Part shown: positions 1,084-52,724 of the stretch, one piece after another | Numbering within the stretch: position 1 is the first letter of the stretch | How the letters are laid out: every line of letters starts with the position of its first letter | NCBI GenBank assembly: GCA_000146465.1 | Contig: CP001949.1 | Direction: 5' to 3' (one strand) | Length of the DNA: 64,000 bases | Translations under genes and position numbers: made by a program | Notes under the pieces: model-generated | Database searches by the model: none | The model's input: the letters and a program-made list of their open reading frames with translations, nothing else | What the model was told of the DNA's origin: nothing

Positions 1084-1926
1084 TTGGTTCCAAAATGTTC
1101 AAATAGAAGCCATCCCTTTAACAGGAAAATGAGCATCAAAGCCCATGAGTCTTGTTCCGATCAGCTTAGAACAAGGTTTGTGATGTTTTTGCATATCAAA
1201 ATGTACATAGGAACCTTGATGTATTGCCTGCTACTTGTCAAAACGTTTTATGGATCCCTGTGTCTTGTGCTCTTGGTTGTGGCCAACTCTTTGTCGTTTC
1301 TGAAGGCGTGTCTGAACGACCCGGGAAGAGTGAATAAAAAGACATATCATAAGTACCTGCCGGATGTGGTTGCATTTGAAAAGAACATCTCGACGCAGAT
1401 ATGCACCAACAAGAATGGGGATTGGATAAGAGCCATAAGGATCAACGGAACCGAGTATGAGGAAAAGTATTGTTTGGAATGTAATTTATTTCGTATTGGA
1501 GGGATGTCCCATTGTAGAGAATGCAACAGATGCATCTTAGACATGGACCATCATTGCCTATGGTTTGGAAATTGCATAGGCAGAAATAATATAAGGCACT
1601 TCCATATCTATCTGTACACTTTGGTTGCTGTTATCTTGGTGAATGCAGCATTGCTGTATAGCTTGATAGCCATATATCCCTGGAGAAATACTCCACCCGG
1701 GCTAGCACTCAAAACCTTCTTATTTCTCCTTGCAGTGTTATATACCTTGTTTTTCTGTGTTATCTTTCTATTCACGGCCTTCAACATATATGTGGCCTTG
1801 AATTCTTCAACATCAAAGGACTTCATCAAGAACGGCCTGAAAAACAAAAGGTTCGATCTTAAGAGAGCCTGCAGAAATCTCTCGAGAATCAGGCCAGAGA
1901 TGTCTTCTTCTCAGCCATCGGTGTAA
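1084..1926 (+). CDS. DHHC-type protein S-acyltransferase
   Basis: CLECNLFRIGGMSHCRECNRCILDMDHHCLWFGNCIG is the DHHC-CRD; four predicted TM segments flank it. Start could also be Met16 (about 1129). Confidence 0.85.
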   Translation: MVPKCSNRSHPFNRKMSIKAHESCSDQLRTRFVMFLHIKMYIGTLMYCLLLVKTFYGSLCLVLLVVANSLSFLKACLNDPGRVNKKTYHKYLPDVVAFEKNISTQICTNKNGDWIRAIRINGTEYEEKYCLECNLFRIGGMSHCRECNRCILDMDHHCLWFGNCIGRNNIRHFHIYLYTLVAVILVNAALLYSLIAIYPWRNTPPGLALKTFLFLLAVLYTLFFCVIFLFTAFNIYVALNSSTSKDFIKNGLKNKRFDLKRACRNLSRIRPEMSSSQPSV

Positions 1927-13423: not shown

Positions 13424-14053
13424 GTGCCCTTTAGAGAGCTTCTCATGGCTGCTAAGAAGATGTGGAACATGTTCCTCCTCGGTTTGATATCGACCAATGA
13501 AAAGAAGAGGAAGTTTCTGGATCGGATGCTCTTCCTCCCTGGAAGGCTTACGAGGATTCTCACAGCTATCAAGTCGTTTGATCAGTCGAAAATATTCTTA
13601 AGAAGGGTTTTGAAGAAAGACGCACCGAACTATTACGAGGTAATAAAGAAACCGATGGACTTAAGCATTGTTCAGAAGAAAATAGGGAAGTATAGGTCCT
13701 TTGAGGAGTTCAAGGCCGATCTTAACTTGATTTGGGATAACTGCCTCAAGTTTAATCAGGAGAAGTACTATCGGGATTGTGCTTTCAAGATGAGGGAGGT
13801 GGTGAGTACTTTCGAGATAGAAGTGGTTCCTGTGAAAATGGATTCGGAGTTTGCAATGGGCTCGAATGTCTGGGAGGGCGAGGAAAACCAAGGGCCTGCT
13901 ATCAAGTGGATGATTAGAAGAATGATTGGAAGAGTCCTTCTTCTTTCTGGATATGGGTTTGTTTCTAAAACAGCACTCTGGGTGTTTTGCGATGTCTTTC
14001 AGCACAAAATTCTGGAGATAGTAAAAGAAGAGTGCAAAGAGAATGGTAAGTAG
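13424..14053 (+). CDS. bromodomain-containing protein
   Basis: [49 protein letters not shown] is a canonical bromodomain. Confidence 0.7.
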
Positions 14054-31380: not shown

Positions 31381-32421
31381 GTGATGAAATATTGTAAACA
31401 GCCCATGATAAAAGACTTTGACATGGTTGAGTGCCCGTTCAAGGCCGAGAGGTGCGTACTCCCTCTTGTAAAAACAGAAGCGGGGTATGAGATGAGGATC
31501 TGCGATAGGCCTGATGCCAAGAAGGTGGTTGCAACGAAGGATAAAAGCCCTAAAGGATATTTCCACTTGGAAATATCTGGGGATAAGTGTAATATAATTG
31601 GATACACAGAGAACATATATTCCTTCACAACACCAGCAGACTTCTATCTTCCTGTTCCCAAGCAAACGAAGGAATTTTATTCTGAAATTTACTCAAAAAT
31701 GGTTTATGGGGACATGAGCCAGTGCATGGAGATTGCCGAGATGTTTGATAAGTCATATGGGGACAATGAAATCCCCATGTACCCGGTTCCGATTATATCC
31801 ACAGTTGAAAGCTTTGAAAATTATAATTTCAAGGACTTCAAGGGAGGAAAAGACAAAACCGGAGATACAGTTCATGTGGGATACGAAGACGAAGTTCCTT
31901 TGTGTCCAGCCCCTGGTTTGCTTGAAAGACTGAAGAAACTCCACGGAGTAGATGCGATGAGGTTACAGGAAGATTTATTCAACCGTTTATTTTCCCTGCA
32001 TCCAATTCTAAGGATATCTAACATCATAAAGATGTTCAGGGCAGATGAAAGAGTTGCAGAAATGGGATTCAGCGACTGGAAAATAAAGAAGTTTCTGCCT
32101 CTGCATGCATACTTTATTGATTCGGGACCCTGGAGAGGATGCTGGGCAAAATTCGGCTTCGACCCTAAAGAGGACCAGAGCAACTTTAGATACCAGATAT
32201 ATGACAGCCGGAAATCGGGTAGAACTTTTCAAGTCTTTGAGGCAGAAAATGTTGTTCACGAGGTTGAGAGAAACAAGTCATGGTATCTGGTTGGCAAGCC
32301 GAGCTTCAGAATGGGATTTCACACCAAGGCTCTTTTAAATCTCCTTAGGTTTCGATATGAGTTAGATTTCCATCCTAACGAGGAGGATGAAGACGAACTG
32401 GAGTTCGAGGTATTTGACTGA
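31381..32421 (+). CDS. hypothetical protein (346 aa); weak resemblance to TFIIIC tau95-type subunit not established
   Basis: Clean ORF with acidic C-terminal tail (NEEDEDELEFEVFD); GPWRGCW motif noted but family assignment unverified. Confidence 0.4.
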   Translation: MMKYCKQPMIKDFDMVECPFKAERCVLPLVKTEAGYEMRICDRPDAKKVVATKDKSPKGYFHLEISGDKCNIIGYTENIYSFTTPADFYLPVPKQTKEFYSEIYSKMVYGDMSQCMEIAEMFDKSYGDNEIPMYPVPIISTVESFENYNFKDFKGGKDKTGDTVHVGYEDEVPLCPAPGLLERLKKLHGVDAMRLQEDLFNRLFSLHPILRISNIIKMFRADERVAEMGFSDWKIKKFLPLHAYFIDSGPWRGCWAKFGFDPKEDQSNFRYQIYDSRKSGRTFQVFEAENVVHEVERNKSWYLVGKPSFRMGFHTKALLNLLRFRYELDFHPNEEDEDELEFEVFD

Positions 32422-32478
32422 GATGAAGAAAATAGCTTCCAGCCCTTCCCAACGAACTGGGAAACTAGACAAAAGAGG

Positions 32479-32497
32479 AAAAAATTTATCCCTCAAA
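32479..32497 (+). promoter_or_regulatory. upstream AAAAATTT + CCC motif in front of RPL6 ATG
   Basis: GGAAAAAATTTATCCCTCAAA then ATG-GTAAGT; supports 32498 as the genuine initiation codon. Confidence 0.45.
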
Positions 32498-33039
32498 ATG
32501 GTAAGTGGACCTTGAAGTAATTTCAGTCTATTAAAGAAGTTAGAGTCATACCGGATGAAGCAGGATTGTACATGCCGGACGATATTCCACAATTTGTTGA
32601 GAAGTACAAAGCAAAAACAGCCCGCAAGCCAAGGGCTAGGAGAAGCGACTTGAGCAAGGGAATGGTTGTCGTTGTTCTGGAAGGGGTTTTTGCATCTCGA
32701 AGAGTAGTCTATTTGAAGGCGCTGGAAGACAATCTCGCTCTCTGTGCTGGACCAAAGTCAGTTAGCGGAGTACCATTTTTCAAGATTGACGAGAGATATC
32801 TTCTGGCAACATCGACTATTTTGAGTATTGGTGTGGATGTGAATGTCGACGAAAAGAACATTATCTTATCAGAGAGAGACGTTTATGATGTGCCTATGGA
32901 TGTTGAGATGACAGATGCAGAGAAGAAGATTGATGAAGAGATTGCAAAAGCCGTCAAGGAGATCAAATACATGAGGACCTATCTTTCTGAGCCATTTGAG
33001 ATCGACACTACAAGAAATTTCTACTCCCTGAAGTATTAA
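32498..33039 (+). CDS. RPL6: 60S ribosomal protein L6 (eL6), spliced: exon 1 = ATG only (32498-32500), intron 32501-32526, exon 2 from 32527
   Basis: VVVVLEGVFASRRVVYLKALEDNLALCAGPKSVSGVPFFKIDERYLLATSTILSI matches eL6 (GTVLIILAGRFRGKRVVFLKQL...[29 protein letters not shown]). The ORF-track entry starts at a TTG (32566), not ATG. ATG at 32498 is followed by GTAAGT...TTTCAG and joins in frame to give MSIKEVRVIPDEAGLYMPDD.... AAAAATTT and CCC sit upstream of that ATG. Confidence 0.75.
32501..32526 (+). other. spliceosomal intron (26 nt) immediately after start codon of RPL6
   Basis: GTAAGTGGACCTTGAAGTAATTTCAG: canonical GTAAGT donor, AG acceptor, A-rich putative branch region. Removal restores the frame to the eL6 ORF. 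The position right after ATG is typical of microsporidian ribosomal-protein introns. Confidence 0.6.
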
Positions 33040-33116
33040 AGGCTATCCATTGGTTTTTATTTGTACTTACCATGTTTCTGTGGCCAGATACTTCCAAAAG
33101 AGAACCCCCTTTGTCC

Positions 33117-34055
33117 TTAGGGTCTTTTCATTTCTTTTCTCTCTTTTGTATAGAGTTCATGGGACTCTTCAAGGTTTAGTGGGATATAGGTGTTTTTATA
33201 GCTGGAGATGATGGGGAAGTGCCTGGAATTTGCCACAGACAATCTCTTCCTACTTGTTAGGCAGAGAAACCCCGAAAGAACCTTTAGCTCTTCCTCGTCA
33301 AACAGATTCCCATACTTCTCTCCAATTATAACTTGAGCGTCTTTGGTTTTGGAGTAAATTTCCACATCAAGCAAATCAGACCACTTGTATCTGTCCTGAG
33401 GGGCCCCCAACTCCTCGAATATCAGCTTTATTTGTGACACTTCGTCATTTCCTCTGTATGGCGGTCTCCCAAGTCTCATTTCCAGCATTATACATCCAAC
33501 AGACCATGCATCTATCTTGAAGTTATAGGATGTCTCCCCGAGTAACAACTCCGGTGCTCTGTACCAGAGTGTGCACACTCTGTTTGTCATCATCCCCGAA
33601 ATCTCTCTGGTTAATCCAAAATCTGTAAGCTTTAGCATTCCATGATGGTCTATTAGGATATTGCTAGGCTTTATGTCCCTGTGTACCAATCCTAACTCAT
33701 GCATCGAACTTACAGCCTCTATGAGCTGCGATATGATAGATCTTGTGTGTTCGTTACTGAGCTTGGTCCCCGACGCAAGAAGCCCTGTTAGATCATATGG
33801 CATGTACTCGAGAACAACAAATATAAAGCCTTCCTCGAATACAATTTCGTTGAGCCTTATTATGTGCTTATTAATTACACTCTTGCAGAGCTTTATTTCC
33901 CGTATGGCCGTGAACGGGAAGCCTGTTTCTCTATCTACAGGCATCTTCTTAATTGCAAACACGGTTCCATCGGCTATCCTTCTGGATTTATACACCTGCC
34001 CAAACGCTCCTTCCCCCACTTGCTTAATATTTTCATACTTCTCCATCAGGGTCAA
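33117..34055 (-). CDS. cyclin-dependent kinase, CDK9/Bur1- or Kin28-like transcriptional CDK
   Basis: GEGAFGQVYK, PFTAIREIKL (compare CDK9 PITALREIKIL), HRDIKPSNILID, DFGLTR, WYRAPELLLG. Confidence 0.8.
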   Translation of the reverse strand: MTLMEKYENIKQVGEGAFGQVYKSRRIADGTVFAIKKMPVDRETGFPFTAIREIKLCKSVINKHIIRLNEIVFEEGFIFVVLEYMPYDLTGLLASGTKLSNEHTRSIISQLIEAVSSMHELGLVHRDIKPSNILIDHHGMLKLTDFGLTREISGMMTNRVCTLWYRAPELLLGETSYNFKIDAWSVGCIMLEMRLGRPPYRGNDEVSQIKLIFEELGAPQDRYKWSDLLDVEIYSKTKDAQVIIGEKYGNLFDEEELKVLSGFLCLTSRKRLSVANSRHFPIISSYKNTYIPLNLEESHELYTKERKEMKRP

Positions 34056-34149
34056 TCCGTGAGTATGTCTCTTGTTTGGATTTGGGCCGAAGTCCTTTCG
34101 GGCAAATTCAAAAGTTCGGGAGATAAAAAATCATTTGAGTTTATTGTTA

Positions 34150-34857
34150 TCAATCCCTAGCAGATGATATATTATCTTCGCTTCCTTCGCTATCGACCAA
34201 CTCGGAATCAATGAGATTGGATTTTTTCTTTTCCTTCTTATCTGAAGGCTTCCCCCCTTTCTTTTCTTCAGGATTTCCTCCTTCATCCCCTCCCTTGTTT
34301 CCCTTTCCATCGCCTTTGTCTTGGTCTTTTGGCTTTTCGCTGGCACCAGAATTTTTATCTTTAGAGTCCTTTCCGTCCTTTCCATCCTTTCCCTTTTTGC
34401 CATCATCTTCTTTTGGTTCTTCCATTGAGCTACTATTGTTTCCACTCCAGAGTTTAGAGCGATGAGTAAGAGAAGAAGAGTTTCCATCCTTGCCACCCTT
34501 CCCATCTTTCTTTCCATCCTTGTCACCTTTCTTTCCATCCTTCTCGTCCTTGCCATCTTTCTTTCCATCCTTCTCGTCCTTCTTTCCATTCTTGTCATCT
34601 TTATTTCCATCCTTCTCGTCCTTGCCATCTTTCTTCCCGTCCTTGTCATCACCGTTCCCATCTTTGACATTAGAAGAAGATAGACTTGATTGTCTTAGAC
34701 GGTGTCTTCTCAAATTTGTTAGGTTTGAGCCATGATGCCCAATTCCATGTATCCTTTTAAGGGCCTTTGCCATGAGAAGTCCTGAGACAAGTATTAGCTT
34801 CTTCATGTTTATTTTCCGTTCCTTAGTATTTATATTTGATTCTAAAACATGTTTCAC
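34150..34857 (-). CDS. secreted low-complexity K/D/G tandem-repeat protein
   Basis: Signal peptide MKKLILVSGLLMAKA, then about 15 iterations of KDGKKDE/KDGNKDD-type units encoded by a DNA tandem repeat; ORFs in other frames of the same DNA rejected. Confidence 0.55.
   Translation of the reverse strand: MKHVLESNINTKERKINMKKLILVSGLLMAKALKRIHGIGHHGSNLTNLRRHRLRQSSLSSSNVKDGNGDDKDGKKDGKDEKDGNKDDKNGKKDEKDGKKDGKDEKDGKKGDKDGKKDGKGGKDGNSSSLTHRSKLWSGNNSSSMEEPKEDDGKKGKDGKDGKDSKDKNSGASEKPKDQDKGDGKGNKGGDEGGNPEEKKGGKPSDKKEKKKSNLIDSELVDSEGSEDNISSARD
34483..34668. repeat. imperfect tandem repeat (unit about 15-45 bp, tttccatccttctcgtccttgccatctttc-like) inside gene 34150..34857
   Basis: Visible periodic reiteration of ccatcctt/ctcgtcctt/gccatcttt blocks on the + strand. 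Confidence 0.6.
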
Positions 34858-39364: not shown

Positions 39365-39368
39365 AAAA
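39365..39368 (-). terminator. Pol III oligo-T terminator of tRNA-Thr
   Basis: TTTT run immediately 3' of the discriminator base on the minus strand. Confidence 0.45.
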
Positions 39369-39441
39369 AGCCACCACTGGGATTCGAACCCAGGACCCTT
39401 AGCTTACAAAGCTAAAGCTCTACCTACTGAGCTATAATGGC
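39369..39441 (-). tRNA. tRNA-Thr (anticodon UGU)
   Basis: Reverse complement GCCATTATAGCTCAGTAGGTAGAGCTTTAGCTTTGTAAGCTAAGGGTCCTGGGTTCGAATCCCAGTGGTGGCT folds as a cloverleaf (7-bp acceptor with two G-U, D-arm TAGCTCAGTAGGTAGAGC, anticodon loop TTTGTAA, T-arm GGTTCGAATCC), followed by TTTT. Confidence 0.8.
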
Positions 39442-39540
39442 TCGCTCTCTAAGGAAAATACACACATCCTGGGTAGAGATGCTCCATTAAAAGAAGCTGC
39501 ATCATCAAGTGCAAGCTTTAAAAAGGATTCAACAAAAATT

Positions 39541-52651: not shown

Positions 52652-52724
52652 GCCTCTGTAGCGCAGTGGTTAACGCGTTCGGCTGTTAACCGAAAGGTCG
52701 AGAGTTCGAGTCTCTCCAGGGGCG
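52652..52724 (+). tRNA. tRNA-Asn (anticodon GUU)
   Basis: GCCTCTGTAGCGCAGTGGTTAACGCGTTCGGCTGTTAACCGAAAGGTCGAGAGTTCGAGTCTCTCCAGGGGCG: anticodon loop CTGTTAA, T-loop GTTCGAGTC, acceptor GCCTCTG/CAGGGGC; strongly resembles eukaryotic tRNA-Asn. Confidence 0.85.

Follow-up and report, generated by a model that had tools for sequence, protein, structure and literature searches.

Which codon opens the gene for ribosomal protein eL6 (RPL6) in Encephalitozoon intestinalis? The question is raised by a 64,000-nucleotide (nt) stretch of contig CP001949.1 (assembly GCA_000146465.1), hereafter the window, in which a program-made list of open reading frames (ORFs) starts the eL6 frame at a TTG codon, position 32566. 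A reading of this DNA made without database searches (the sequence-only reading) had proposed instead an ATG at 32498 followed at once by GTAAGT and, 26 nt later, by TTTCAG, and all of these elements are found where it placed them. Its report of the TTG start in the ORF list also holds, although its remark that the frame has no ATG at its 5' end in that list left an in-frame ATG at 32572 unmentioned. We put at about 95% the probability that positions 32498-33039 are the eL6 gene, with a predicted 26-nt intron directly after the ATG. To judge from its sequence, this is a typical short microsporidian spliceosomal intron, correctly proposed but ordinary.

The predicted splice junction and its product

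From 32527 onward, exon 2 reads TCT ATT AAA GAA GTT…, and joining the ATG to 32527-33039 by script keeps the frame and yields MSIKEVRVIPDEAGLYMPDDIPQF…, a product of 171 amino acids (aa) plus stop. At greater length this spliced eL6 is MSIKEVRVIPDEAGLYMPDDIPQFVEKYK…SLKY, its start being also written MSIKEVRVIPDEAGLYMPDD…. Translated without splicing, the ATG at 32498 yields MVSGP and then a stop, and the TAA at 32518-32520, within the intron, shuts the eL6 frame upstream. As is expected of this class of introns, retention breaks the frame and removal restores the conserved full-length eL6 ORF, and the length of 26 nt and the GT-AG ends fit the range of 22-76 nt given in PMC3629993. The ATG at 32572, two codons past the TTG, is where older unspliced models begin (155 aa, MPDDIPQF…), and it is preceded by an out-of-frame ATG at 32555. 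The N-terminal segment SIKEVRVIPDEAGLY (peptides SIKEVR / VIPDEAGLYMPDDIPQFVEK) is present in the 171-aa form and absent if the start is Met17.

The sequence-only reading had carried its ATG-TCT splice in frame into the eL6 core, and the resulting product proves to be identical to an existing record. In a collection of 5.8 billion proteins, it matches ADM12106.2, the L6e domain protein of E. intestinalis ATCC 50506 (171 aa), at 100% identity and 100% coverage, and three KAL… accessions from other isolates carry the same 171-aa protein. It scores 33.4 bits against Pfam Ribosomal_L6e (PF01159), for which the cutoff is 21.4. Orthologues of like length are found in E. hellem (170 aa, 83% identical), E. 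romaleae (171 aa, 83% identical) and E. cuniculi (171 aa, 77% identical; CAD26482.2 / NP_597306.2), the last being chain L6 of the ribosome structure 7QEP. With this chain, which is of the 171-aa form, the spliced product aligns end to end (residues 1-171, E = 5.7e-89); the L6 chains of 6ZU5, 6RM3 and yeast match it too, and from position 3 onward it aligns with the eL6 chains of the microsporidian ribosomes 7QEP, 6ZU5 and 6RM3. An alignment to eL6 of related microsporidia, which the sequence-only reading had named as a check, bears out the proposed N-terminus, as residues 2-16 align with the eL6 N-termini of E. hellem, E. romaleae and E. cuniculi.

The public annotation already contains this structure. 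The E. intestinalis gene spans 542 bp for 171 codons and a stop, which leaves over an intron of 26 nt, and the suffix of ADM12106.2 marks a revised record; between that GenBank eL6 and the predicted product there is no difference. The feature is not new: it is annotated in GenBank, where ADM12106.2 holds the spliced product, and for sister species an L6 intron has been in print since 2009. According to the telomere-to-telomere (T2T) paper (PMC10158259), introns were put into the Encephalitozoon annotations by hand. A model of the unspliced type is also on record for E. cuniculi (AGE95161.1, 155 aa).

The 5' splice site has the form expected of a spliceosomal intron. The U1 small nuclear RNA (snRNA) of Encephalitozoon, including E. 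intestinalis, carries a 5' ACUUACC motif (PMC5499648), and the reverse complement of GGTAAGT, ACTTACC, matches it exactly, as a strict definition of the 5' splice site asks. On both strands of the window, the composite motif GTAAGT-N(5-40)-TAATTTYAG has a single match, at the eL6 site, against 0.087 per window expected by shuffling and 0.003 when an ATG is required in front; these figures come from mononucleotide shuffles, which do not preserve dinucleotide composition. Chance is not a plausible origin of the composite motif. The 9-mer ATGGTAAGT is weaker evidence than the full motif, with 3 occurrences in the window against 0.72 expected.

Two other occurrences of this 9-mer were considered as introns and rejected as chance matches. 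That at 14043-14051 (+) is out of frame, reading …GAG AAT GGT AAG TAG (E N G K stop), where an upstream ORF ends, 86 nt ahead of the start of uL16. That at 33065-33073 (-) lies in the 3' spacer between eL6 and the kinase gene that follows it, antisense to eL6, and is unconserved: E. hellem and E. romaleae have a deletion there and E. cuniculi a substitution. A looser pattern, GTAAG…TAAT…AG, has six more matches (31266, 46128, 62167 and 62362 on the plus strand, 26925 and 33070 on the minus strand), of which only that at 33070, in the same unconserved spacer, has an ATG in front.

The intron and the upstream box among relatives

An orthologous phase-0 intron stands at the same position in eight other genomes (Table 1), with lengths of 21-29 nt that are not only multiples of three; the gene spans of the public models of four Encephalitozoon species imply intron lengths of 26, 27, 27 and 26 nt. 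Across the Encephalitozoon alignment ATG|GTAAGT…TAATTTYAG is kept, 1-nt indels fall within the intron, and a whole-codon difference lies just downstream. TAAT followed by TT(T)(Y)AG is common to all nine intron-bearing orthologues and is the putative branch site. The 5' splice site is invariantly GTAAGT except in one Logan assembly (L013), where GTAGGT has one mismatch to the U1 ACUUAC. In eight species (L013 was left out of the retention, codon-position and Met17 analyses), the unspliced read from the first ATG stops after 5-11 codons in 8/8, including those whose introns are multiples of three. Among the 14 codons past the intron (IKEVRVIPDEAGLY), the columns that vary number 6 at first, 3 at second and 13 at third codon positions, and such a third-position excess is expected of a translated segment. 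Apart from the Logan assembly L010, the intron-bearing species have no in-frame ATG for the post-intron segment except the pre-intron ATG. Met17 is unconserved, being Ile in L010 and L012 and Thr in L011 (the latter two are intron-less assemblies). Together, its length, the effect of retention, the coding signal downstream and the unconserved Met17 set the predicted segment apart from coding and from random sequence and mark it as an intron.

The signal upstream of the gene is conserved as well. In E. cuniculi, 5' untranslated regions are shorter than 7 nt and ribosomal-protein genes have an AAATTT-like and then a CCC-like signal before the ATG (PMC2803860). Additional file 3 of PMC2803860 lists the E. 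cuniculi L6 box as 'AAAAAATTTATCCCTCAAA* (intron)', to which the E. intestinalis box AAAAAATTTATCCCTCAAA is identical base for base; the core AATTTATCCCTCAAA of the box does not vary among four Encephalitozoon species, and near-identical boxes precede eL6 in other relatives. The sequence-only reading had held that the box sits as it does before other genes of the window, and this is so: AAATTT…CCC…ATG precedes all three ribosomal-protein genes in the window, uL16/RPL10 (14129), eL6 (32498) and uL11/RPL12 (60452, with a longer spacer). In its composition and its position against the ATG, AAAAAATTTATCCCTCAAA|ATG has what defines a microsporidian ribosomal-protein promoter signal, and we regard it as a predicted promoter. 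The ORF behind the box at 32498 has only 5 codons, which is itself an intron signature.

Among the closest described cases is L6 of E. cuniculi, an orthologous gene in the same synteny (Tau95, eL6, convergent kinase) behind the identical box. Its intron lies at the same site after the ATG, has the same 26 nt and the same GTAAGTG…GTAATTTCAG ends, and differs from that of E. intestinalis by 5 substitutions; codon 2 is TTG (Leu) in E. cuniculi and TCT (Ser) in E. intestinalis. Support for splicing also differs between the two, as E. cuniculi has class-level RNA-seq and E. intestinalis is known here from DNA alone. The L6 model of E. cuniculi was modified after comparison with N. ceranae (Cornman 2009; PMC2685015, Fig. 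1 legend), L6 was listed with a mispredicted start and an intron by Peyretaillade 2009 (PMC2803860), and the E. intestinalis intron stands at the same site as the one documented for these two species. The earlier appeal to a class of ultra-short microsporidian introns, mostly in ribosomal-protein genes and right after the ATG, is sound: such introns of about 25 nt with GT-AG ends are described in PMC6349667 (Whelan 2019), and no difference was found between the eL6 intron and the short microsporidian introns of Katinka 2001, Lee 2010, PMC3629993 and PMC6349667. The poly-A-binding and S23 genes have unusual introns, which at about 76 nt are long and are spliced efficiently; the eL6 intron is not of that kind. 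Ribosomal-protein introns of yeast also lie near the 5' end; their 5' site, of the GUAAGU/GUAUGU type, pairs with U1, and their branch motif is of the UAAY type. They are hundreds of bases long, whereas nearly all of the 26 nt of the eL6 intron are splicing signals. Splicing efficiency differs too, averaging about 80% in S. cerevisiae against mostly <50% in E. cuniculi (PMC3629993).

Three relatives, represented by Logan assemblies, lack the intron. In L014 (SRR29713748, about 1498-1510) the gene reads …AAAATTTTTATCCCTCAAA ATG ATG ATC AAG GAG GTT AGA…, also given as CCCTCAAA-ATG-ATG-ATC-AAG; this is the box, the first ATG and exon 2 of a gene like that of L010, with the intron gone exactly at the predicted boundaries. 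A cDNA would have this very sequence, and it independently supports the predicted splice junction. In L012 (SRR21023581, about 1470-1503) the box is kept and is followed by …CCCCAAAAGCAGTCTAG|ATG ATA AAG…, without ATG-GTAAGT; the first ATG and the 5' splice site are gone and a …TCTAG remnant stands before the new ATG, as though the intron had been lost imprecisely and the gene now depended on a downstream ATG. The third, L011 (SRR25435973), is AT-rich. In L010, which retains an intron of 29 nt, an ATG follows directly after it. In the earlier literature the L6 intron was flagged only for E. cuniculi and N. ceranae, and not for A. locustae, E. bieneusi or A. algerae (PMC2803860).

Proposed mechanism and rival readings

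The following course of events is suggested by these data. Transcription would start a few bases upstream of the ATG at 32498, behind the AAATTT-like/CCC-like signal, as the rapid amplification of cDNA ends (RACE) literature on E. cuniculi suggests, and on sequence and comparison the primary transcript would contain a 26-nt U2-type intron, 32501-32526, right after the AUG. The ACUUACC at the 5' end of U1 snRNA would pair with G|GUAAGU, spanning the last base of the start codon, and the 5' splice site would be attacked by a branch adenosine of the conserved UAAU that lies 5-6 nt ahead of the 3' AG. Ligation is predicted to join AUG to UCU and so to give the 171-aa eL6, whose frame and protein identity are as set out above. 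Unspliced mRNA would be unproductive from the first AUG (MVSGP-stop), and a scanning ribosome would meet the out-of-frame AUG at 32555 next; at best it would give a 155-aa, N-terminally truncated protein from the AUG at 32572. Splicing is probably inefficient, by analogy with E. cuniculi.

Several points weigh against an intron here. In PMC2803860, one predicted 27-nt ribosomal-protein intron was unspliced in a RACE product, and motif evidence alone is for that reason no proof of splicing. None of the four contigs that carry the exact spliced protein is transcript-derived, and a metagenome scan with the pattern ATCCCTYAAAATG-N(6-36)-AARGANGTTAGAGT, for intron-containing or intron-less forms, gave 0 matches. 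The four Encephalitozoon species also differ unusually little inside the intron, which leaves few independent substitutions; this conservation fits a tight constraint by splicing signals within 26 nt. On the other side, and for the class as a whole, every annotated E. cuniculi intron was found to be spliced, 30/37 of them at <50% and 22 at <20%, and all of these introns give stops or frameshifts when retained (Grisdale 2013; PMC3629993).

If there were no splicing, eL6 would be a 155-aa protein from the ATG at 32572, and ATG-GTAAGT would be a fortuitous upstream ORF of 5 codons. That ATG is indeed in frame, public models of this kind exist (AGE95161.1 with 155 aa, O. colligata with 154 aa, N. 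granulosis with 152 aa), and short E. cuniculi introns are so poorly spliced that some unspliced mRNA surely exists. However, the 15 codons upstream of Met17 are conserved as protein and show third-position bias, and Met17 itself is replaced in the relatives named above. The promoter box abuts the ATG at 32498 and not that at 32572, which moreover comes only after the out-of-frame ATG at 32555. Straight behind the box, L014 and L012, which have no intron, encode this N-terminal segment too, and the curated records and the 7QEP chain have the 171-aa form. We therefore regard an unspliced gene as very improbable. Less probable still, to the point of being negligible, is a non-ATG start at TTG 32566 with no intron. 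The ORF lister does give this start, but it applies bacterial start rules by design, and the TTG is merely the first ATG, GTG or TTG after the stop in such a listing. The codon corresponds to Leu15 of the conserved segment; its counterpart in E. hellem and E. cuniculi is CTG, and in L010 it is TTA. The same artefact is seen in the ORF at 59810 (59810-60346, +). The sequence-only reading had noted that it too is TTG-initiated, and so it is in the list; as a second intron of this kind it is rejected, having an ordinary ATG at 59831 (MDDLKEKL…) behind a TATCCCATTACAG CCC motif.

It is also conceivable that the intron is real and acts mainly as a dosage throttle, its deliberately inefficient or regulated removal, close to the cap, setting the output of eL6, possibly with autoregulation as in certain ribosomal-protein genes of yeast. 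In E. cuniculi, where most introns are spliced at less than half, 11 junctions change between time points (PMC3629993); the sequence and position of the eL6 intron are strongly conserved; and retention abolishes productive translation, except in species with an ATG directly after the intron. However, low splicing is put down in PMC3629993 to the reduction of the spliceosome, and for ribosomal-protein genes no compensatory role was found there; L014, L012 and L011 do without the intron, which is hence dispensable. We consider such a regulatory role unlikely, though far less so than either of the intron-less readings, and favor an ordinary short intron whose predicted removal joins the ATG to exon 2.

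Corrected gene models, the neighborhood and possible stages of intron loss

The same structure can be used to correct the eL6 models of other species. The public models of Ordospora and N. granulosis start at an internal Met or are partial, and in each genome ATG|GTAAGT…TAATTT(C)AG lies behind an AAATTT/CCC box; spliced accordingly, they give 170-171 aa.

Table 1. Positions of the eL6 elements in the window, with the orthologous introns and the gene models of relatives
Feature	Position	Strand	Intron (nt)	Codons after intron	Remark
AAATTT-like and CCC-like upstream signal, AAAAAATTTATCCCTCAAA	32479-32497	+			Abuts the start codon
Exon 1, initiator ATG alone	32498-32500	+			Kept in all nine intron-bearing orthologues
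E. intestinalis predicted phase-0 spliceosomal intron, GTAAGTGGACCTTGAAGTAATTTCAG	32501-32526	+	26	TCT ATT AAA	GTAAGT…TTTCAG, GT-AG ends
5' splice site with preceding G, G|GTAAGT	32500-32506	+			Perfect 7-nt complement of ACUUACC (Encephalitozoon U1 snRNA)
Putative branch-site core TAAT	32518-32521	+			5-6 nt upstream of the 3' AG; from conservation, use of its adenosine predicted
Exon 2 of eL6, codons 2-171 and TAA stop	32527-33039	+			From translation
E. hellem intron, GTAAGTGGGACCTTGAAGTAATTTTAG			27	ATT AAA	
E. romaleae intron, GTAAGTGAGACCTTGAGGTAATTTTAG			27	ATT ATT AAA	
E. cuniculi intron, GTAAGTGGGCTTGGAAGTAATTTCAG			26	TTG ATT AAG	
L013 (Logan SRR21633403) intron, GTAGGTGGGTCGAGCGTAATTTCAG	1476-1500		25	TTG ATT AAG	
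L010 (Logan ERR13636775) intron, GTAAGTGGACTTGCGAAGATAATTTTTAG	745-779 region		29	ATG ATC AAA	
O. pajunii and O. colligata intron, GTAAGTGAGTTTGCGTAATTTCAG			24	TTG ATT AAG	
N. granulosis intron, GTAAGTAAAAATATAATTTAG			21	ATA AGA GAC	
O. colligata eL6 gene	L008 1429-1965		24		Public model 154 aa, intron missed
O. pajunii eL6 gene	L007 1474-2010		24		Public model 169 aa, partial, intron missed
N. granulosis eL6 gene	L009 1423-1959		21		Public model 152 aa, intron missed

The genes around eL6 are conserved in most relatives. At window positions 31381-34055, Tau95 (a TFIIIC subunit) is followed by eL6 and this by a convergent CDK-like kinase, and the order is complete in 8/11 loci of relatives, all of them Encephalitozoon- or Ordospora-like. 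In all loci but one, eL6 has a convergent kinase gene beside it. The exceptions are L010 and L011, incomplete on short contigs (the cut upstream gene of L010 has no Pfam call), and N. granulosis, whose neighbors are rearranged into kinase, eL6 and then a convergent Tau95. According to PMC4654818, L6 and TFIIIC subunit 5 overlap in transcription in each of three distant microsporidia, and this holds for no other pair of genes.

Elsewhere in the window, a 371-aa ORF (MEEDEVNSGNILIEYQL…) at 22648 (-) is preceded by a box in the style of ribosomal-protein genes, AAAATTTTTCTTACCCCCTGAAAAGA; the AAATTT/CCC signal is known to mark highly expressed non-ribosomal genes too (PMC2803860). At 34131-34857 (-) there are overlapping, repetitive low-complexity ORFs that are Lys/Asp/Gly-rich (KDGKKDGKDEKDG…) or Arg/Met/Glu-rich (RTRRMERKM…) according to frame, and the product of the ORF at 59810-60346 (+) is coiled-coil-like. 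Rfam and tRNA scans of the window found only two tRNAs above the gathering score, and no snRNA: the genes are those for tRNA-Thr(TGT), 39368-39442 (-), and tRNA-Asn(GTT), 52652-52724 (+).

For the E. intestinalis genome the intron matters only as correct gene structure: without it, eL6 would be 16 residues short or would be given a spurious TTG start. The rule ATG-GTAAGT…TAATTTYAG serves to correct truncated eL6 models, including the 155-aa entry of E. cuniculi. It may also be said that a reading of the sequence made without tools recovered a real and easily missed feature.

The joint pattern of four states among the relatives allows a further, tentative reading, which we hold to be possible without favoring it, that the eL6 intron is seen at successive stages of loss within the Encephalitozoon/Ordospora clade. 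In this scheme the ancestral state would be ATG|intron|non-ATG codon, as in Encephalitozoon, Ordospora and L013. In L010, unspliced mRNA could encode a near-full-length eL6 if ribosomes reach the second ATG, and splicing would thus become optional. L014 would represent a precise loss, as expected from recombination with reverse-transcribed mRNA, and L012 the imprecise one described above. The distribution of the intron over the relatives is a small but clean observation on how reduced genomes lose introns, and if the species tree supports the order, the series would illustrate in compact form how the last introns disappear from a genome whose spliceosome is inefficient.

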